Part shown: piece by piece, positions 2,989 to 19,705 of the stretch
Layout: every line of letters begins with the position of its first letter
How positions within the stretch are numbered: position 1 is the stretch's first letter
From: a virus
IMG/VR virus record: IMGVR_UViG_3300031746_000002
Location: 32,001 to 96,000 of that record
DNA length: 64,000 nucleotides
Strand: one strand, 5' to 3'
Program-made: the position numbers and the translations under genes
The notes under the pieces: model-generated
The model's database searches: none
What the model saw: the letters and a program-made list of their open reading frames with translations, nothing else
What the model was told of the DNA's origin: nothing

Positions 2989-3900
2989 ATGGATTTAACA
3001 CAATTAAAGAATTATGCAGAAACAACAAGGGATATACCAAAAGAAATAAATGCACAGCAGATGATGGCTGAACTTGCATCAGCAGTAAATATTCCTGAAA
3101 AGCATAGCAGGAAATATAGAATTGAACACGAGATAATAAAGCAAGGAACTCCTGTTACTCTTATTAGTATGCGTAATGCTATTTTGATGGGATATAAATC
3201 ACTCAATATTATTTTTGATACTGATTTAAAAATTCATAAATTAAAATCAAAAGATGGTGGGCTTCTTATGAGTGACCATCCACAGGAAATATTCCTTGCC
3301 CATGAAGGATTAAAAGCTGCACATGGAGTAGTTCTCATGGGTGGTTTAGGATTAGGCTATGCAGCAACGAAGCTTGCACAAAGGAAAGATATTTCAAGGA
3401 TATACGTAATTGAAATTGATAAAGAAATAATCAAGCTAATTAAACCACATTTGGGACCAAAGATAACAGTAATAAATGAAAGTATCTATACATTCTTACG
3501 ATGCTATAATTACAAAGTTGATTATGTCTTTTTAGATACATGGTACCAGACTGGTGAAAGTACATATTGGGACACTGTATTTCCTTTAAGAATATTAGCA
3601 AGAAAAAGATTTGTTAAATCTGAAAAGGATATATTCTGCTGGGGAGAAGAAGAGATGTTAGGACAGGTAAAAACATCAATGTGTCATGTACTCAGCGGTG
3701 ATTTGAAACCCTGGAATAAAGCATTGTATGCAGTTCATGTTGCAATCATACGTAAATTAACTAAATCAGATGGATTAAGAGACATACCAACTGTTGTTAA
3801 TAAATTCTTCACAGATGTTGGTTCAAAGGAATGGGAGAAGGAATGGCATTTTTCTAAGTGTCTTAAAATTGCTGATAAAAACTATAAGGAGCAAAAATGA
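2989..3900 (+). CDS. Class I SAM-dependent methyltransferase / spermidine synthase-like protein
   Basis: VLMGGLGLG, YVIEIDKEII and DYVFLDTW motifs. Confidence 0.75.
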   Translation: MDLTQLKNYAETTRDIPKEINAQQMMAELASAVNIPEKHSRKYRIEHEIIKQGTPVTLISMRNAILMGYKSLNIIFDTDLKIHKLKSKDGGLLMSDHPQEIFLAHEGLKAAHGVVLMGGLGLGYAATKLAQRKDISRIYVIEIDKEIIKLIKPHLGPKITVINESIYTFLRCYNYKVDYVFLDTWYQTGESTYWDTVFPLRILARKRFVKSEKDIFCWGEEEMLGQVKTSMCHVLSGDLKPWNKALYAVHVAIIRKLTKSDGLRDIPTVVNKFFTDVGSKEWEKEWHFSKCLKIADKNYKEQK

Positions 3901-4539: not shown

Positions 4540-4611
4540 TTAGCCTGTGGGTTTTCAGAAGCTTAGTTCACCACTTTCCTTCTGATGAAAGTTTTCCAGC
4601 CCACAGGCTAA
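4540..4611 (+). ncRNA. Putative antisense hairpin sRNA A
   Basis: Stem TAGCCTGTGGG/CCCACAGGCTA, inner stem TCAGAAG/CTTCTGA, 17-nt loop complementary to AAAGTGGTGAA sites in early genes; TATAAT at 4530. Confidence 0.55.
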
Positions 4612-4961: not shown

Positions 4962-5966
4962 ATGGAAAACCCCAAAGTGGTGAAACTCCTAACATCAGAT
5001 GAAGTTAGGAGCAGGTTAGTAAGTGATACAAAAGGAGAAGCAGTAGAAACAATTACAATGAAAGAGTTTGAATTTGTTGATGAAGCAAAGGATGACATAA
5101 CAATTCTTTCATTAAGGAAAAAAAGATTTGAAGTTGAACCAGATGCACTCGAATCAATCTTCAGGCATGTTGGAGTACCTACCAATTTCTTTTTACGCTG
5201 CAGTAAATCAACGAAGCAGAGTATCTCAAAACAATTCCTTGAAACAAATCCAAAAGAAGTACAGGTGCTTTATGGAGAAAATAGGATTAAAAATATTTTC
5301 TCAACAAAAACACCTTATGTTCCTACACTTGAAGTATTTGATGCAGCCCAAAAATCTGTAGGGAAATCGATGATTGAAACTTACACGCAGAGTAAAGGTA
5401 AGTTCATAATCAACTGGATAACTGAATATGCATCACATCCAGTGAAAGCAGTAAATGACATTTCAAAAGCTGGCATTACAATTGAAATAGGAAAACCAAA
5501 CGTACATTTCGATTTCGGGATTTGTGTAGGTGGTTTCATTTTCCGGCTGATATGTACTAATGGAATGATAACATCAAGGAACGAAATCACACAGGTCAAA
5601 GGTAGTTCAAAGGAAGAAATACTTACTAATATTAAAGGATTAGTAAGTGAGTCCTATGAAGCAGTTACAAAAAAAGAATTGCCAAGATTTGTTCATATGG
5701 CAACTGTACCAATCGACGATCCCGCTAATGCAGTTCACCAGCTGGCAAGGCAGAACCATATTCCAAGAGGTCATATAAAAACATTGCTTGACAGAGTACC
5801 ATCACTCGGGCAGAAGCCCACAATGTATGGAGTTATAAATCTGATAACTTCATATGCAAAAGAAATTCCGGATTATTACCAGAGAAGGAAAGTTCAATCA
5901 TTGGGCGGCGAAGTATTAAGAACTCAGCACAAATGCCCGACATGTCTCCATACTCTGGCATCATAA
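4962..5966 (+). CDS. DUF932-like phage protein
   Basis: GFIFRLICTNGMI motif and TMYGVINLITSYA helix. Confidence 0.65.
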   Translation: MENPKVVKLLTSDEVRSRLVSDTKGEAVETITMKEFEFVDEAKDDITILSLRKKRFEVEPDALESIFRHVGVPTNFFLRCSKSTKQSISKQFLETNPKEVQVLYGENRIKNIFSTKTPYVPTLEVFDAAQKSVGKSMIETYTQSKGKFIINWITEYASHPVKAVNDISKAGITIEIGKPNVHFDFGICVGGFIFRLICTNGMITSRNEITQVKGSSKEEILTNIKGLVSESYEAVTKKELPRFVHMATVPIDDPANAVHQLARQNHIPRGHIKTLLDRVPSLGQKPTMYGVINLITSYAKEIPDYYQRRKVQSLGGEVLRTQHKCPTCLHTLAS

Positions 5967-6028
5967 TCCGAAACAGGGAGTTAATCACTCCCTGTCTACT
6001 GGGGATAATCTCCCAGTACTGATGAGGA
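5967..6028 (+). ncRNA. Hammerhead ribozyme, type II; predicted cleavage after C5996
   Basis: TCC-GAAA-[CAGGGAGT/ACTCCCTG]-TC-[TACTGGG/CCCAGTA]-CTGATGA-GGA: full catalytic core and three stems. Confidence 0.9.
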
Positions 6029-6035
6029 AGATAAA

Positions 6036-6272
6036 ATGAAAATAGATTACATCAAAAAAGAAAATAAAATTATAACTCAGATAGACATACTTCATAAAGG
6101 TATATTATACAGCTTTATGAATAATGAAGGCAGAGCTATTGAAATTAGTAGACGAACTAAAGGTAAATGTAAATCACCGAATTATGAACCTGGAATTGCT
6201 AAAGGATATTATGTTGATATAATAGAACTTGCTAATAAAGCTATTATGAAAAGTTTAAAGAAAAAGGCTTAA
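6036..6272 (+). CDS. Hypothetical protein
   Basis: ORF whose RBS overlaps the ribozyme 3' end. Confidence 0.6.
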   Translation: MKIDYIKKENKIITQIDILHKGILYSFMNNEGRAIEISRRTKGKCKSPNYEPGIAKGYYVDIIELANKAIMKSLKKKA

Positions 6273-11953: not shown

Positions 11954-12606
11954 TGAGAAGTTTAATTATCAGTGATTTACACATGGGAGATGGTACAGGT
12001 ACAGATGATTTTATAGCACAGGATGATAAAGTATTAAATTTTATAGAAAATATTAATCCTGATATATTATATTTAAACGGTGATATTTTTGAATTATGGC
12101 AATGTAGTATGCGTAAGATAAGAAAGTTTCATTATACATTTACTAATTATGTTGAAGGCAAATATTACAAACCAGTGATTTTTCCTCAGATAGTTAAACT
12201 TAAAGGTAATCATGACTATTCATTACTGGGACAAATGAAAGCAGAAATAACTACAAGATCAGGAAAAAAAGTTCTTATTACTCATGGTTTTCAAAATGAT
12301 CCTTTGATGACAAATCCTATTTCAAGATTTTTCACTTGGTGCTTAGGAAGAATAGAAAGACTTATTCCAAATATAGATAATGTTTTTAGTGCATCTAAAA
12401 GAATAAATAATAAAGCTAACGAATATGCGATGCAACAACTTAAAAAATATGATATAGTTATTTTAGGACATACTCATAAAATAGAATGTAAACAATATTT
12501 AGTATTAGGTCGATTTGTTACTTATGCAAACAGTGGCACTTGTACTAATGGAAAAATACAAGGTATTTTATTAGACACTGATACTGATGAAATTAAAATA
12601 GTATAG
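11953..12606 (+). CDS. Calcineurin-like metallophosphoesterase (LpxH/YbbF-like)
   Basis: SDLH, NGDIFE, GNHD, THG and GHTH motifs. Confidence 0.85.
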   Translation: MRSLIISDLHMGDGTGTDDFIAQDDKVLNFIENINPDILYLNGDIFELWQCSMRKIRKFHYTFTNYVEGKYYKPVIFPQIVKLKGNHDYSLLGQMKAEITTRSGKKVLITHGFQNDPLMTNPISRFFTWCLGRIERLIPNIDNVFSASKRINNKANEYAMQQLKKYDIVILGHTHKIECKQYLVLGRFVTYANSGTCTNGKIQGILLDTDTDEIKIV

Positions 12607-12793
12607 GAGGAACCATGCCAGATGTAACTATGTGCGAATTTAAAGATGAATGTAAAAATTTTCATAGTCAATGCTATGCCCAAAACACTATTAAAAATTG
12701 TAAGATAAGACAACAGAAATTAAAAGATCATATAAGAGTTGGCAAAGTTTTTAATAAAATGCATCATCATATTAAAAACCAAGAGGCTGACGA

Positions 12794-13153
12794 ATGAAAA
12801 TATATTACGCTCATAGCAAAGCAATTTATGGTACGCAAAGAGAAAAAGAAGAGTTATGTTTTTTAAAACTTGTATTTGATGTTGTTGACCCTAATAATGA
12901 TATGGGTGAAAGAGGTAATATAAAATATTATCTTGAAGCTATAAATAAATGTGATTTAGTAATTTGTTCTGAATATCAAGACTTTATAGGTAAAGGTGTT
13001 TTTCAAGAAATAGATTGGGCTATAAAAAATAATAAACCAGTTCTATGTATGCGTCCACATGATAAAACATTTCTATTATCTTTAGTTAAAGATACGAAAA
13101 TTCATGATGTTACAGACTGGCATGTTAAGTATGGAAAACTTACTGTTTATTAA
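12794..13153 (+). CDS. Nucleoside 2-deoxyribosyltransferase-like protein
   Basis: KIYYAH, CDLVI and GVFQEIDWA..NKPV pattern. Confidence 0.55.
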   Translation: MKIYYAHSKAIYGTQREKEELCFLKLVFDVVDPNNDMGERGNIKYYLEAINKCDLVICSEYQDFIGKGVFQEIDWAIKNNKPVLCMRPHDKTFLLSLVKDTKIHDVTDWHVKYGKLTVY

Positions 13154-13173
13154 TAACAAAATGAAAATAAATA

Positions 13174-13218
13174 AATTATTTTGTTTACGCAATTATTCTA
13201 ATATGGTATATTATTATT
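13174..13218 (+). promoter_or_regulatory. Early sigma70-type promoter, diverged copy 3
   Basis: AATTATTTTG-TTTACG(13184)-N17-TATATT(13207), preceded by TG. Confidence 0.7.
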
Positions 13219-13253
13219 AAGGATAAAACGAATAAGAGAAGTAGATGCTGAGC

Positions 13254-13440
13254 AAAGGAAAACGGAATGAGTAAAGGAAAACGGAACATAATTCAAACCT
13301 ATAAGTCAATCTTGCCAGTTCATAACTTTGCTGGTATTCCAACTGCCTATCCAATACAACTTATTATAAATATTTTTTCAACCTATGATGTTAACATCGT
13401 AGGTAATTCAAGGAGGAAAACGGAAAATGAAAAACGGAAA
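13254..13440 (+). repeat. Repeated AGGAAAACGGAA motif (13256, 13275, 13414; partial at 13431)
   Basis: Direct repeats over the RBS/start of ORFs 13267 and 13427. Confidence 0.8.
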
Positions 13441-13759
13441 AGCTGTCGGCAGGTTATCGCTGAAATTGAAAAGAAGATTGACCAAAGAACTTATTTTAAA
13501 AGGAGTAAACAAAGAAGTAATTGAAACCGCAATTAAATCTGCAGAAATGGCAACAGAAAAAAAGTACCCAAAACTCACCCGTCAAAACATCAAACAAGCC
13601 AATCAATTGTTAGCTGAAGAAGGTACAGTAATTCTTAAACTCAGTGCAAAAGGTAAAATCTATTTTATCAACCATACAAGAGTAAAGGTTCATGATAAAA
13701 GAATAGATTATCTTCGCTCTGATGAAATGCGTAAAAACAAAGCAAATAAACACCAATGA
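13427..13759 (+). CDS. Hypothetical basic protein
   Basis: AGGAGG RBS. Confidence 0.65.
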   Translation: MKNGKAVGRLSLKLKRRLTKELILKGVNKEVIETAIKSAEMATEKKYPKLTRQNIKQANQLLAEEGTVILKLSAKGKIYFINHTRVKVHDKRIDYLRSDEMRKNKANKHQ

Positions 13760-13817
13760 TTTTGGGAACTAAAGTGGTGAAGTACTGACGAGCACAAATT
13801 TAAGGAGGAAACAATTA

Positions 13818-14447
13818 ATGCTTAAAAGTCTTTGGGACAGGGTTAGAAACAATGAGGCTACAGAAGAAGAACGAAATGCATTTGCTAGCGAAATTAAAAT
13901 TATTGTTAAAGCGCGTAAATCAAAAATCAATAAAGAAGTCGCTAGAAGTACCATGAGAGAGTATGATGATTTATTAAATGAAGTTTGTAATCATACTTAT
14001 ATGTGCGTCATAAAGTACAAATATAACTCTAAGATTACAACAGTTGTTTATAAACTAGTAGACCAATACACTATTTATCTATACAGGAAAACAAGACGTA
14101 ACAAAGTTATTCCTCCTGAGTTAATAGATACTTTTACATCATCTCAACGTCCTGAAAATTTACGATATTTTAGAAACGATCCCAATAATGAAAATTTAAG
14201 CTTTGATGAAGTATTAGCAAATAAAAAAGATTGTGTTGAAAATGATTTAATATACGATAATTACATAGAAAAAATAAAAGGGGTTTTAATAAAAAATCAT
14301 GACACTGTTTCATTAAAAATACTTGAAGGAAAATTAAAAGGATATACTGATGCAAAGATAGCTAAGACATTAGGAGTAAGTACACCCAAAGTAAATTGTA
14401 TTAAACGGGAAAATCTTATGGAGGCTGTTTCACAAGTATTATGCTAA
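13818..14447 (+). CDS. Phage sigma70-family (ECF-like) sigma factor
   Basis: Region-2-like EYDDLLNE segment and C-terminal HTH GYTDAKIAKTLGVS. Confidence 0.65.
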   Translation: MLKSLWDRVRNNEATEEERNAFASEIKIIVKARKSKINKEVARSTMREYDDLLNEVCNHTYMCVIKYKYNSKITTVVYKLVDQYTIYLYRKTRRNKVIPPELIDTFTSSQRPENLRYFRNDPNNENLSFDEVLANKKDCVENDLIYDNYIEKIKGVLIKNHDTVSLKILEGKLKGYTDAKIAKTLGVSTPKVNCIKRENLMEAVSQVLC

Positions 14448-15853
14448 ACCTTTATATTAATAATCTGATAAGATTTGATAGTACATCTATTTCATCGCAA
14501 CTATATGAAATATTGAAGCAGAGGTTTACCTATTCAAATCCAGAATATTATAAACAAAAAGCAATGGGATTTTATGTGGGACATACTCCACAAAAATTAT
14601 ATACACATTTCATTGACCGTAATATCATTGCTTTTTCTAGAGGTACTATTAGTGAATTACGAAAAATACTTGATGGGAATGGCGTTCAATGTAAAATATA
14701 TGATGAACGAAAAGAAGGACATAAAATATCATATAGGTTTGAACGTAACATAAACCTTTATCCTTTTCAAACACAAGCAATAAATGATTTATCAGCTAAA
14801 ACACAAGGTATATTAATAGCACCTCCAGGAGCTGGTAAAACAATAATGGCTATGGGTGTAATTAATAAACTTAAAAAATCTACTTTAATCATTGTTCATA
14901 CTTCAGAATTGTTAAGACAATGGAAAGAGCAGATACAAGAAAAAACAAATCAAAAGACAATAGGACAAATCGGTGCTGGTAAATATCAATTGGAAAATAT
15001 AACTATAGGAATGTTACAAACATTGACTAAAGTTAATAAAACAAAAATGAAAGAAATAAATAACTTTTTTGGTATAGTTATAACAGATGAATGCCATCAT
15101 ACTCCGGCAAATACACTGTTCTATTTTTTAAATTCTTCTGAAGCTAAATATCGTTATGGTTTAACAGCAACACCAAAAAGAAAAGATGGTAAAGAATTTT
15201 TGTTGAAAGATACAATAAGCCATCATAGCATTGAAATTACTAATAGTGACTTAGAGCAGCATGATCAGTATGTTGCTGGAGATGCAGAATTTATTTTTGA
15301 TAGTAATTTTATGTATGATATTGCAATGGATGATGAAGTTAAAGCAGACTGGAATATGGTCATTGATGCAATGATAAGTAATGAAGGCAGAAATCTTACA
15401 ATTGTTAATGAAATAATAAAGGATATAGATGCTGGCAGATTAATTTTAGTTCTAACTACACGTGTAGAACATTGTCAAAATCTGCAAGCAATGTTAGAGG
15501 AACGGGGATATAAATGTGAAGCAGTTTATGGTGACCCAGAAAAGCATCATAGAGAAGCTGCTCTACGAAGAATAAAAGAAGGTCAAAGCAGAGTAATGGT
15601 AGCTACAGAAAATTTAGCAGCAGAAGGACTTGATATTCCAGAATTAGATACATTACATCTTGTTATACCAACTACTAATAAATATAAATTAAAACAAATG
15701 ACTGGTAGGATTAGACGTAAGTACGATAAGAAACAATTACCTTTAGTTAAGGATTATGCTGATATAAAAATAGGTGAATTAAAAGGTGCAGCTAAGAAGC
15801 GATTAAAGATATATAAGGATTTAGGATTACACATACGAAATATTTTCTTATAA
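14441..15853 (+). CDS. Superfamily 2 DExH helicase
   Basis: APPGAGKT, DECHH, TAT, EGLDIP and QMTGRIRR motifs. Confidence 0.92.
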   Translation: MLNLYINNLIRFDSTSISSQLYEILKQRFTYSNPEYYKQKAMGFYVGHTPQKLYTHFIDRNIIAFSRGTISELRKILDGNGVQCKIYDERKEGHKISYRFERNINLYPFQTQAINDLSAKTQGILIAPPGAGKTIMAMGVINKLKKSTLIIVHTSELLRQWKEQIQEKTNQKTIGQIGAGKYQLENITIGMLQTLTKVNKTKMKEINNFFGIVITDECHHTPANTLFYFLNSSEAKYRYGLTATPKRKDGKEFLLKDTISHHSIEITNSDLEQHDQYVAGDAEFIFDSNFMYDIAMDDEVKADWNMVIDAMISNEGRNLTIVNEIIKDIDAGRLILVLTTRVEHCQNLQAMLEERGYKCEAVYGDPEKHHREAALRRIKEGQSRVMVATENLAAEGLDIPELDTLHLVIPTTNKYKLKQMTGRIRRKYDKKQLPLVKDYADIKIGELKGAAKKRLKIYKDLGLHIRNIFL

Positions 15854-15898
15854 AAGGCTTATAAATATAATACAGATAAAAAACAAAAGGAGGCGTAG

Positions 15899-16207
15899 AT
15901 GAAAACAATCCGTAAAGCAATTGAAAACAAGTGGACAACAATCACACTTGAAAAAGAAGAGGAACAGAAATTAATTGCAAGAACGATAAAGAAAAATGCT
16001 AATCGTCTTGCAAAGGTTACAAGCTTTGTTAATGAAAAAGACAAAGACATTAAAGAAGTAATTGATGGTATCGAACTTGACAAGGCAAAAGTAATTGAGC
16101 TAATCTTCTTACAAATAGCTGAACCGTTAGAAGATGTTGTCAGCGATTATGTTGAGGAACAAATTGAAAATGGAAAAATCAAACCCAGTAAAAAAGACAT
16201 TGAATGA
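15899..16207 (+). CDS. Hypothetical protein
   Basis: GGAGG RBS, downstream of a GCTTA motif. Confidence 0.6.
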   Translation: MKTIRKAIENKWTTITLEKEEEQKLIARTIKKNANRLAKVTSFVNEKDKDIKEVIDGIELDKAKVIELIFLQIAEPLEDVVSDYVEEQIENGKIKPSKKDIE

Positions 16208-16904
16208 AGCTGAAGCAGATTTAGCTAAAGACTTAGCCAGACGATTAATCCGAAAAAAGAAGTTAACAAAAATAATAACAAAATTGGATAATCGTTATCG
16301 TGGCAAAAGTAAACCTGCTGATGTTTTGGAATACTACAAAACAATTCAGAATAACAAACGTATCAATAATGCATTGATAGTTGAAAGAAGGGAGCAGTTA
16401 AATATGAAACAATCAGTTAAAGAAGAGACAAAAGTTAAAACTGCCCCTGATGAACAGCAGCCTATAAAACCAAATGGTTCTGAAGCAAAAGAATTATTAA
16501 GTTATGCATTGAAATCATTCAAAAAGAAATTTGGTGCAAATGCAATGTATACTAATAATGAATTTGCAATATCAATGAGTACTTTAAAAAACATGTTGAA
16601 ACTATACGATGCAAACCAGATTAAAGAATTCATTGAAGAATATTATAATTTAGATGATGCATTTTTACAAAGTGCTGGTTATAAGTTAAGATTTCTGCCA
16701 TCTAAAATAAATACTATCATTGCAACACGAAGTAAATTTAAAACTAAACATCAAGACTTTACAAAAAAAGATTATGGAAAAAGTTTATCTAATAGCCAGC
16801 TTCATGAATATATAGCAATGAAAAAGAGCGGTGAATGTACAGGTAAAGAACCCTGGGCTAAAGAATATGAAAAAGAAATACATGATAGGGAATTAGATGG
16901 ATAA
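16134..16904 (+). CDS. Hypothetical protein, possible replication initiator (start uncertain)
   Basis: Position directly upstream of the DnaC-like loader and DnaB. Confidence 0.45.
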   Translation: MLSAIMLRNKLKMEKSNPVKKTLNEAEADLAKDLARRLIRKKKLTKIITKLDNRYRGKSKPADVLEYYKTIQNNKRINNALIVERREQLNMKQSVKEETKVKTAPDEQQPIKPNGSEAKELLSYALKSFKKKFGANAMYTNNEFAISMSTLKNMLKLYDANQIKEFIEEYYNLDDAFLQSAGYKLRFLPSKINTIIATRSKFKTKHQDFTKKDYGKSLSNSQLHEYIAMKKSGECTGKEPWAKEYEKEIHDRELDG

Positions 16905-17637
16905 TCTACAAGAAAAACGATTAGGTAAAATAAAATTTAATCTTTTAAAGAACTGTACCATTTGTAAAGGTACTGGTATTACAAAAGATGAACATACATG
17001 TATATGTTTACTTAACTATGAAAAATATGTGCATTATGATTTTGCTGGTATTGAAAAAGAATACTGGGAATTAACATTGGAAAAAGATTGGATAGGAGAT
17101 AAGGTAGCAAAAAAATATACACAACTTTATATAAAGCATTTGGTTAAAGCTTATGAGAATGGTTTAGGTATTATTTATCTTGGTAAAAATGGTGTTGGTA
17201 AAACAATGTTATCTAATGTTGTATTGAAAGAAGCATCAGACAAAAATTATAGTGTTAGAAATATTACTTTGGAAGAGTTATTAAAATTAATCAAAACTTC
17301 ATTTGAGTCTTCAGATGCAAAAGATGAATATGAAAAAATAAAACAAATGGATTTTATTTGCCTTGACAATGTAGGGTTAGAATATAAACCAAAAGACTTT
17401 GGAGTTTTTACTGTAGCTGAGATGGACGTATTAATAAGGTATAGACGACGTAATCTTTTACCAATTATTATAACTTCAAATTTAACAAGTAAAGAAGAAT
17501 TCATGGAAAATTATGGTTCATCTATTTTAAGTCTATTAATTTCTGCTTCAAAATTTATTATTGTTCAAGGCGAAGATTACAGATTAAAACAAGGTGAAGA
17601 CTGGGAAAATAAATTAAAAGGAATAAGCGGTGAATGA
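16897..17637 (+). CDS. dnaC: DnaC/IstB-like helicase loader ATPase
   Basis: N-terminal CxxC...CxC, GKNGVGKT, LDNVG, IITSN, GEDYR. Confidence 0.85.
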   Translation: MDNLQEKRLGKIKFNLLKNCTICKGTGITKDEHTCICLLNYEKYVHYDFAGIEKEYWELTLEKDWIGDKVAKKYTQLYIKHLVKAYENGLGIIYLGKNGVGKTMLSNVVLKEASDKNYSVRNITLEELLKLIKTSFESSDAKDEYEKIKQMDFICLDNVGLEYKPKDFGVFTVAEMDVLIRYRRRNLLPIIITSNLTSKEEFMENYGSSILSLLISASKFIIVQGEDYRLKQGEDWENKLKGISGE

Positions 17638-19057
17638 AATAACTATCCAACGAAAATTACTTAAATTAATGCTTCTTAGTAAAGAAGTTACTTCAGAAGC
17701 AAGTAAACGTTTAGCTTCAAAAATGTTTACATCAGAATATGCTAAATGGTTTTATGAAAAGACAACAGAATATTTTATTAGATTTGGATCATTGCCTACA
17801 CTTAAAATTTTAATGGATATTTTAAAGAGGCATACTAACAATGAAAAAATAGTTGAAGAACATAGATTATTTTTAAAACAAATTAAAGTTGAAGAAGTAA
17901 AAGCAAAAGAAGCAAATTATTATATTGAAACTATTAATGAGACATATACTAAGTTAGAAGCTTATAATATTCTACAAAGTGCTGTAGTTGATATGGAAAA
18001 ACCTGGTTCTAATATATTTACTGGAATTGAAAACTTACAATTGAAGTTAGGACAGTTAAGTTATGCTACATCACCAACACCAGTTCAAAGAATAGAAGTA
18101 GTTAGTGGATTATTGGAAAGACTTAAACTATATGAGGATTTTAGGTATGATGCAGAAGGAGTAACAACGGGTTTAACAGAGCTTGATAATCATATAGGTG
18201 GATTTCATAAGGGAGAGCTTGTAATCATCATTGGGGGGACGGGTGAAGGTAAATCCATAATCCTATTGAATTGTGCGACTGCTGCGTATCTAGACGCACA
18301 CAGTGTTATCTATATAACAATGGAAATGAGTGAAAATGATGTACTTATACGATATCATTCAAGAATATCAGGTTTGAACCATAATAAAATAAGGAAACAT
18401 AAACTTGACCCATTTGAAGAACGGGAACTTTATTCTAAAATTATTACTAATACTTTAAAAAAACCAGACAGAGAAAAATTTAAAAAATGGTTTGCTAGTC
18501 AATCATTGAAAAAAATAACTGTAGATGAACTATATGCAGCAGTAGCCAAAAATTTTAAATTTAAAGACAGTAGGCTTTATTTCTTAGATTTAATGAAAGA
18601 TTGCACTATTGAAAAAATAGAAATTGAAATTAAACAACTTATGAGAGGTCATACTTATGATGCAATTTATTTAGACCATCTTAACACAATAGAAACATCA
18701 CATAAATCAAATAATTGGGTTAGGGATATAGGTATCATAGCACGTAGATTAAAGAACCTTGCTAAAGAACTTAATGTACCTATAATAATTCCTTGTCAAA
18801 TGGTTTCAAAAAAAGAAGGTGAAGAAATAACAGCTGAAGATACAAAGTATGCAAAAGCTGTTGCAGAAAATGCTGATTGGGTTATAGGATTTAAACAATC
18901 TGAAGAAGATAAGATGACAGGTATAATTAAACTTGAATTAGCAAAGCATAGACATGCAGAAAAGATTATAATAAAAGCTAGAGAGAATTTTAATAAGATG
19001 CGAATCAGTGATTTTGAGGATAAAAATGGCATCACTATTAAAAAAGACAACATGTGA
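17630..19057 (+). CDS. dnaB: Replicative DNA helicase
   Basis: TTGLTELD, GGTGEGKS, MEM, LDHL, LKNLAKELNVP. Confidence 0.9.
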   Translation: MNEITIQRKLLKLMLLSKEVTSEASKRLASKMFTSEYAKWFYEKTTEYFIRFGSLPTLKILMDILKRHTNNEKIVEEHRLFLKQIKVEEVKAKEANYYIETINETYTKLEAYNILQSAVVDMEKPGSNIFTGIENLQLKLGQLSYATSPTPVQRIEVVSGLLERLKLYEDFRYDAEGVTTGLTELDNHIGGFHKGELVIIIGGTGEGKSIILLNCATAAYLDAHSVIYITMEMSENDVLIRYHSRISGLNHNKIRKHKLDPFEERELYSKIITNTLKKPDREKFKKWFASQSLKKITVDELYAAVAKNFKFKDSRLYFLDLMKDCTIEKIEIEIKQLMRGHTYDAIYLDHLNTIETSHKSNNWVRDIGIIARRLKNLAKELNVPIIIPCQMVSKKEGEEITAEDTKYAKAVAENADWVIGFKQSEEDKMTGIIKLELAKHRHAEKIIIKARENFNKMRISDFEDKNGITIKKDNM

Positions 19058-19265
19058 TATTGGCGAAGAAGATGAAGAAGTTTGTTTAGAACATAAAACT
19101 TCTAATCTAAGCGGATCAAAAATGCCTTGGCACAGAGATGGAAAATTATTTTGTGAAGGTTGTGGAAAAGGAGTTAGTTCAGTTTCAGTAGTTATTGAGG
19201 GGGCATTTTGCGATACTTGTATTATAGGTGTAATGAATAAAAGGATTATAAAGAATAAAAAATGA
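19026..19265 (+). CDS. Small Cys-rich zinc-finger protein
   Basis: CEGC and CDTC pairs; GAGG RBS. Confidence 0.5.
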   Translation: MASLLKKTTCDIGEEDEEVCLEHKTSNLSGSKMPWHRDGKLFCEGCGKGVSSVSVVIEGAFCDTCIIGVMNKRIIKNKK

Positions 19266-19627
19266 AAATACGACATTTACTTTTAGATTTTGAAGGAATA
19301 CAAAAAAATCTTAAATTACTTGATGACCCTAATAAGCTTGCTATAGTAATGATAAGAGCAGCTGAAGTGGCTTCAATGACAGCATTAAGCTGGAGCTTTC
19401 AAAAATATTTACCACAAGGTTTAACTGTTACTGTGTATTTAGCTGAAAGCCATTTATTAATATCAACAACACCAGAAAATAAAGAATGTAATATTGATGT
19501 AAGCGTTTGCAAAGAATCAAGTGATTTAGAAGCAGTAGAACAATATTTCAAAAAATTATTTAAACCAAAAAATATTATTAAGAATTGTATTGAACGTGGT
19601 TCTAAAAATATAGAAATAAAAGGATGA
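19262..19627 (+). CDS. speD: S-adenosylmethionine decarboxylase proenzyme-like
   Basis: RHLLLDF, QGLTV, LAESH autocleavage motif, DVSVC, ERG. Confidence 0.75.
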   Translation: MKIRHLLLDFEGIQKNLKLLDDPNKLAIVMIRAAEVASMTALSWSFQKYLPQGLTVTVYLAESHLLISTTPENKECNIDVSVCKESSDLEAVEQYFKKLFKPKNIIKNCIERGSKNIEIKG

Positions 19628-19630
19628 TAT

Positions 19631-19689
19631 GGGACTGGCTTTGGTTGGGCTATTTAATTCCGTTTTCCTAGTTTAGCCGAGCCAGTCTC
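19631..19689 (+). ncRNA. Putative antisense hairpin sRNA B
   Basis: About 21-bp stem with several G-U pairs (favouring the + strand) and loop TTTAATTCCGTTTTCC complementary to the repeats at 13256-13425. Confidence 0.55.
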
Positions 19690-19705
19690 TCCTTTTGGAG
19701 ATGAT

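Follow-up and report, generated by a model that had tools for sequence, protein, structure and literature searches.

In the genome of a large, uncultured phage (over 139 kb), we identified a hairpin, H3 (19632-19689, + strand), whose loop is complementary to sequence at ribosome-binding sites heading what may be its own early/replication operon. We read H3 as a loop-presented antisense (anti-RBS) element inside that operon, a tentative reading to which we give a probability of roughly 0.4. The hairpin is exceptionally stable, its fold is weaker on the opposite strand, its loop is accessible in the folding model, and the complementarity of the loop is enriched toward the leaders of early genes. 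All positions refer to the window, a 64,000-nt stretch of DNA comprising bases 32001-96000 of a 138,900-nt IMG/VR virus record (completeness estimate 68%) derived from sediment metagenomes.

A stable hairpin within the replication module

The window is approximately 30% G+C, and its + strand shows positive G-C and A-T skew in every 2-kb segment. The replication module includes genes for an SF2 helicase (14441-15853), a DnaB-like helicase (17630-19057), a DnaG-type primase (20231-21241), and a PD-(D/E)XK nuclease (21199-21984). H3 occupies a 78-nt intergenic gap (19628-19705) in this module. Upstream of the gap is an AdoMet decarboxylase-family gene (AdoMet_dc; 19262-19627, + strand), whose stop codon stands 4 nt before the stem. 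Downstream is ORF 19706 (19706-20227, + strand), a small membrane-protein gene whose 173-aa product, of no known function, is hydrophobic in its N-terminal segment.

In H3, a 20-bp stem containing a single bulged U closes a ~23-nt loop; the stem pairs comprise 8 G-C, 6 A-U, and 6 G-U. The minimum free energy of the + strand is -32.8 kcal/mol (z -3.7; 0/200 shuffles as stable), against -22.1 kcal/mol for the - strand, and H3 is the most stable 80-nt window across the whole 138,900-nt record. An initial annotation of this DNA had described a long stem with about six G-U pairs and proposed the + strand RNA as the folded form, and both statements were borne out. On the + strand, every one of the six non-Watson-Crick pairs is G-U, a pattern expected from selection on the sense RNA. 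The putative seed, ATTCCGTTTTCCT (19657-19669, + strand), is part of the apical loop, and its bases are unpaired with a mean probability of 0.74. The folding model thereby supports an accessible loop and the + strand RNA as the folded species. The loop reads UUAAUUCCGUUUUCCUAGUUUAG, with UUCC/UUCCU present and UCCC absent.

We searched Rfam and found no family for H3 or for the 13.2-13.4 kb leader described below. Elsewhere in the window, a type II hammerhead ribozyme (5966-6036, + strand; RF02276, 52.4 bits versus a gathering score of 37) fills a 69-nt intergenic gap. The 1.2-kb gap at 26672-27870 has no called ORF; ARAGORN predicted a tRNA-Leu(CAG) there (26692-26769), and the weak 122-nt Rfam tRNA match right behind it (26771-26892, 31.6 bits) may be an interrupted or degenerate tRNA. 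A 15-codon ORF inside H3 (19629-19676, + strand) would encode a hydrophobic product, with its ATG in the left copy of a flanking repeat, behind AAAGGA, and its TAG in the 3' arm; it is probably incidental.

The loop is complementary to repeated sites at 13.2-13.4 kb

The seed is complementary over 13/13 nt to AGGAAAACGGAAT (13256-13268, + strand) and over 12/12 nt to two further copies (13275-13286 and 13414-13425, both + strand), as the initial annotation had stated. Its description of these targets as SD sequences beside start codons holds for the first and third copies. The first covers an SD plus the AT of the ATG of a doubtful ORF at 13267, and the third overlaps the SD of ORF 13427, but the second lies within the leader or doubtful ORF 13267 and not beside a credible start codon. 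A partial copy, AAAACGGAA (13431, + strand), follows the third; the repeats cluster beside a promoter with spacings of 19, 139, and 17 nt. The common motif AGGAAAACGGAA occurs exactly four times, a count that is the same for the window and for the whole record: three copies are on the + strand (13256, 13275, 13414) and one is on the - strand, in the H3 loop. When the reverse-complemented H3 region was compared with 13200-13460, likeness ended at the 13-mer. The leader (13219-13445) is no more structured than its shuffles (z -0.01).

ORF 13427 (13427-13759, + strand; 110 aa) is the first credible gene of this unit. No relative of its protein was found (an ORFan), and its winged-helix-like Pfam matches are faint and below the cut-off. 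A sigma-70-like gene (13818-14447, + strand; 209 aa) follows, a lead that comes from the ESM Atlas only (score 0.97; ten best named clusters all sigma-related; TM ~0.5), with no Pfam sigma family at E ≤ 0.01. The target had been presented as the sigma-factor operon. The sites are indeed translation-initiation regions heading an operon with this sigma-70-like gene, but they belong to a module that is carried by seven cassettes.

Against the whole genome, the H3 loop match is unremarkable. An antisense match of at least 13 nt somewhere on the + strand was found for 7.5% of 20,000 random 23-mers and for 13.9% of 20,000 shuffled H3 loops, rates that are high because the + strand is purine-rich; the BLAST E value of the loop match is 0.13. 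Requiring a three-copy target lowers the chance figure to 1.3-1.8%, with the three copies constituting one local repeat.

The target belongs to a seven-copy early promoter-leader cassette

We performed a sigma-70-like promoter search in which H3 was not used. This yielded nine regex hits, two of which (27111 and 74273) were dropped as they lacked conserved flanks. The remaining seven early cassettes are at 2001, 4884, 13184, and 61541 and, beyond the window end but on its scale, at 66885, 76595, and 80555. In each, an A+T-rich upstream element is followed by TTTACG, a conserved spacer of 17 nt, TATAAT, and then a leader rich in purines. The early promoter at 13184-13212 (+ strand) is a variant member (TTTACG-17-TATATT) and heads the unit that contains the targets and, 6.4 kb downstream, H3. 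We found no match to the cassette pattern elsewhere in IMG/VR. At ~3757-3775 of the record (G000:C1; window scale ~-28243 to -28237), there is an inverted ~17-nt copy of the cassette -10 region, with overlapping 11-mer reverse-complement matches.

The cassette leaders are variations on AAGGAAAA-G-AA, of which AGGAAAACGGAA is one. At 76680-76712 (window scale), the target motif of H3 and that of a second hairpin, H2, are adjacent within the first codons of a gene. Across cassettes, the target motifs keep their nucleotides in differing reading frames and in non-coding positions, which points to modules at the nucleic-acid level rather than a shared peptide. The H3 target is the 5' module of the seven-copy early cassette and is not special to the sigma operon.

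Loops of H3 and a sibling hairpin match early leaders

We defined the natural target class, after the targets were known, as the first 120 nt of the seven early-cassette transcripts (840 nt in total). The 13-nt antisense match of H3 to these 840 nt has P 0.0002 with 30,000 random 24-mers and P 0.003 with 20,677 pyrimidine-rich 24-mers, a set that includes H3's own windows. The sibling hairpin H2 (4541-4611, + strand) carries a loop antisense to AAAGTGGTGAA at 2432, 4974, 13771, and 61620, with a mean unpaired probability of 0.63 for its seed. Its 11-nt match to the same 840 nt has P 0.0023 (random) and 0.018 (pyrimidine-rich). Two of the four hairpin loops tested, those of H2 and H3, thus match early leaders in antisense; the loops of H1 (1685-1745) and of a hairpin at 61462 had no antisense match to the 840 nt. 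H1 itself (+ strand) is a long branched hairpin (-27.5 to -28.7 kcal/mol) that lacks a U-tract and lies in a 394-nt gap upstream of cassette 2001.

Record-wide, 27 sites are antisense over at least 11 nt to the 840 nt, and strong local structure was present in H2 (-30.8 kcal/mol) and H3 (-35.2 kcal/mol) only, with the remaining 25 between -3.9 and -17.5 kcal/mol. H2 and H3 are also the only two of the 27 that match more than one early unit. When the reverse-complemented H3 loop was aligned to the cassettes with gaps allowed, it scored 28 (P 0.005 in 3000 shuffles; 4/2992 random segments as good), the alignment to cassette 76595 covering 25 positions with an 11-nt gap. The corresponding figures for H2 were P 0.008 and 65/2998 random segments as good.

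Predicted duplex energies between H3 and the target SD sites are -23.8, -18.2, -18.5, and -20.5 kcal/mol. Among 195 crude gene starts (median -9.2 kcal/mol), the top two duplexes of H3 (-20.5 and -18.5 kcal/mol) each fall on the first gene of a different early unit. For H2, such first genes take three of the top eight places among the same 195, with the second gene of a further unit ranked first. The initial annotation had assigned H3 and the hairpin at 4540 the same architecture with different seeds. The kinship survives in the loops, where H2 is also antisense to early leaders and the pair exceeds chance, but not in the hairpins as wholes, which are not similar (P 0.31). The early-leader P values were obtained post hoc, and the sites are not independent because the cassettes are mutually homologous; we accordingly put the combined evidence at roughly P 0.001-0.01 instead of using the raw products. 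On this basis, the H2 and H3 loops are probably genuinely linked to the early 5' modules.

Transcription context

Upstream of H3, the only cassette-type promoter-like site on the + strand is that at 13184. A terminator scan that required a loop of 3-8 nt gave three sites in 12000-22000, all on the - strand, and none on the + strand; the first clear terminator after H3 is at ~22.8 kb. H3 and its targets may therefore share one long transcript, and the earlier designation of H3 as a middle transcript is not supported. Among the + strand promoter-like sites listed, none falls in 19348-19809 (14 weaker ones stand outside the list), and the upstream regions of H2 and H3 share no significant motif (P 0.077). 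Without a promoter-like site just upstream or a motif shared with H2, H3 is only a candidate as a discrete small RNA. In a search of sequencing runs, no run recorded as RNA contains this stretch, a result that is uninformative on expression.

H3 had also been placed in a replication operon behind a GCTTA motif. The replication module is confirmed, but 18500-20000 holds no GCTTA, and the motif in question is a one-mismatch GCTTAWTAAT at 15857, 3.8 kb upstream, a possible second transcription entry. The exact motif GCTTAWTAAT occurs eight times, always on the + strand (6267, 9454, 22002, 26673, 32001, 37011, 56889, 63433), and is a candidate second promoter class; with one mismatch it shows no excess (32 found vs 31.6 expected).

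Proposed mechanism

On the antisense reading, H3 would belong to a long early/replication unit transcribed from the 13184 promoter and maybe also fed from 15857, and its apical loop would carry, in antisense, the purine-rich 5' module (SD plus first codons) of the early cassettes. H3 would be transcribed minutes later than the 5' end of the unit and would probably persist as a stable remnant, either 3' or left by processing. Pairing of the loop with AGGAAAACGGAA(U) at the ribosome-binding sites heading the unit would follow. The strongest predicted targets are the ORF 13427 site, within the same unit as H3, and the opening gene of cassette 76595, outside the window, with weaker binding expected at other early leaders. 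Such pairing may prevent initiation, form a double-stranded RNase III substrate, or both, resulting in delayed negative feedback on early genes, and H2 may act likewise through the neighboring sub-motif AAAGTGGTGAA. A 13-bp helix within a 23-nt loop would be topologically strained, and probably ~7-9 bp would form at first. That H3 RNA accumulates, pairs, and represses is what we infer from the sequence.

Relatives, strain variants, and alternative explanations

We performed blastn against 50,697 phage records and found no match. Single-protein IMG/VR scans with the primase, AdoMet_dc, and ORF 19706 returned no relatives, and GTDB genomes held none. The best identities were 41% in an IMG/VR alignment scan (primase; locus L005, record G001) and 33-36% in JGI metagenomes; a primase with 72% identity (P0002) is encoded on a contig of 4,095 nt. 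In G001, the closest retrievable relative, dnaB directly precedes the primase gene and the whole insert is absent, which places H3 within an accessory insert of 1.2 kb. The early cassettes are absent from G001 as well. On the reverse strand of G001 (958-1032), a 57-aa zinc-ribbon-like ORF is immediately succeeded by a long hairpin, a possible parallel to H2 and H3, whose interior/loop TCACCTCCTTTC is the complement of a perfect extended SD and resembles the anti-SD end of 16S rRNA.

We also compared contigs of four sediment runs, in which cover was low. An identical strain in run X3 spans H3 (18911-19813) with no differences, and run X5 contains a strain of roughly 85% identity. Metagenome variants depart from this sequence at 19621 (one) and at 19725 (another); the former departs before H3, so the AdoMet_dc gene also exists without this hairpin directly behind it. 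Two contig joints skipping 18525-20311 and 19599-21162 were left out, as their sides comprised only 21-24 letters. Together with the accessory insert and a 9-nt direct repeat flanking H3, the contigs indicate that the H3 locus is a mosaic boundary too.

This setting suits a purely cis-acting role, in which H3 is an intercistronic hairpin at a mosaic boundary that serves as an attenuator, an RNase III site, and/or protection from 3' exonucleases, and in which the loop match arose by chance or as a by-product of cassette recombination. We regard this as the main rival to the antisense reading, possible though somewhat unlikely. H3 is fitted closely between its neighbors, beginning 4 nt past a stop codon and ending 8 nt ahead of the next SD. 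RNase III substrates need ~20 bp or more of double-stranded RNA, and the 20-bp stem in its 78-nt gap is of that length. The 3' tail TCCTTTTGGAGATGAT (19690-19705, + strand) opens with a brief U-tract (T at 5 of the initial 8 nt, TCCTTTTG) followed by the SD (GGAG) of ORF 19706, and its CUCC...GGAG could make a small alternative hairpin. Upstream, AAAAGGA (19617-19623, + strand), which overlaps the end of the AdoMet_dc gene, pairs with TCCTTTT (19690-19696), as in many terminators, and extends the structure to -35.0 kcal/mol. The accessory insert with its two breakpoints, a 9-nt direct repeat GATGATATG flanking H3 (19623-19631 and 19698-19706, + strand; P 0.007 in 50,000 random placements), and the whole-genome null of 7.5-14% for the antisense match all sit well with this role. 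Passages of PMC2839356 describe PeSL stem-loops of T4-like phages that terminate at such boundaries. However, a cis-acting role leaves unexplained why two of four tested loops are antisense to the same cassette class. H3 is also absent from the terminator scan, which requires a 3-8 nt loop, and the four clear terminators of the genome combine perfectly paired, G+C-rich stems with 5-7 consecutive T. The cis-acting and antisense readings are compatible, and both can hold.

It is improbable that the element acts at the level of DNA, with AGGAAAACGGAA as the site of a phage DNA-binding protein (e.g., the 110-aa ORFan or the sigma-like protein) and the inverted repeat as an origin-like or single-strand initiation structure. 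A double-stranded site would be the same in either orientation, and the motif is direct at 13.2-13.4 kb and inverted between dnaB and dnaG. The repeats beside a promoter, the position of H3 within the replication module, and the sub-cut-off winged-helix-like matches of ORF 13427 would also be accommodated. Yet the palindrome mismatches are 6/6 G-T on the + strand, which argues for selection on a single strand, most simply RNA; nor would a DNA site explain why a binding motif falls exactly in a loop, twice and with two different motifs, and no iteron-like array is present at H3.

Finally, a MITE-like mobile element with imperfect terminal inverted repeats and a 9-bp target duplication, landed in an overlapping stop/start junction, would account for the direct repeat on both sides, for the compact SD/stop/ATG junction that excision would restore, and for the variant contig that lacks H3 after 19621, but is very hard to credit: the 138.9-kb record holds a single copy of H3, elements of this type are rarely as short as 58-66 nt, a G-U-only asymmetry is unexpected for terminal inverted repeats, and the exact outer-stem pattern was found in 10 stretches among the genomes of 185,579 prokaryote species, approximately the chance number by estimate, none of them like H3 in the interior.

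Comparison with known systems

T7 and SP82/SPO1-type phages carry long imperfect intercistronic RNase III hairpins in early polycistronic mRNA, and the processed 3' ends stabilize mRNA and can pair with upstream RBSs. The predicted 20-bp imperfect intercistronic stem of H3 resembles these hairpins. The c4 RNA of P1/P7, which Citron and Schuster reportedly described in 1990, is said to be a small structured RNA inside the operon that it controls, with loops that are complementary to repeats spanning a ribosome-binding site. H3 is similar to c4 (P1/P7 immI; Rfam RF01695) in that its loop is complementary to three exact repeats, two of them at SDs, possibly in the same operon. Unlike c4, it is a single hairpin located 6.4 kb downstream of its targets, and it belongs to a large phage for which no lysogeny genes were seen in the annotated stretch. 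The RF01695 covariance model gave no match at the gathering score over the window, nor at E ≤ 10 in 19560-19760.

In S. aureus RNAIII and the Rsa RNAs, according to passages of PMC2790875 and PMC2837412, an unpaired pyrimidine-rich loop motif binds the SD of several mRNAs and blocks initiation, and RNase III takes part in RNAIII action (passages of PMC2790875). The H3 loop is likewise predicted to pair with target SDs. It differs in lacking the UCCC of these C-rich-loop RNAs, in a complementarity of 12-13 nt that runs past the SD core, and in that no promoter or terminator of its own was found; moreover, H3 is phage-encoded and would be aimed at the phage's own early genes. Judged by these features, H3 is outside the c4 and RNAIII/Rsa families, and those two appear to be its functionally closest systems. 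The antisense RNA that P1/P7 embed in their own operon and the SD-binding loops of RNAIII/Rsa make the initial annotation's view that this is not a described system too strong.

The PeSL cassettes of T4-like phages, in the portions of PMC2839356 and PMC4122927 that treat them, combine an early promoter, a stem-loop, and an SD/start and mediate module shuffling, with stem-loops that act as terminators or attenuators (PMC2839356). The H3 targets similarly lie in a repeated cassette of sigma-70-like early promoter, leader, and SD/start at module boundaries. H3 itself has no adjoining promoter and is unrepeated, and none of the seven cassettes is at H3; the sequences are not similar, and the phages belong to unrelated lineages. 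The same portions of PMC2839356 do not describe the stem-loops as antisense to their own cassette leader.

Implications for early-gene control

If H3 were merely a processing or stabilizer element, the finding would be ordinary. A wider, more doubtful proposal built on the H2 and H3 sequences is that a large lytic phage may shut off its own early genes via a small family of hairpin RNAs embedded in its early operons. Each loop would be antisense to a different sub-motif of the early cassette, itself taken to be mobile, one hairpin would reach several early units, and the distance between promoter and hairpin would set the delay, forming an RNA timer layered on the sigma cascade. Early-gene shut-off in large lytic phages is usually ascribed to proteins, namely sigma/anti-sigma factors, RegA-/RegB-type factors, and nucleases. 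If the antisense action of these hairpins is true, the repeated cassette would be both a recombination module and a common address for RNA control, and a strong hairpin with a loop antisense to a repeated leader would become a search rule for the genomes of uncultured phages.
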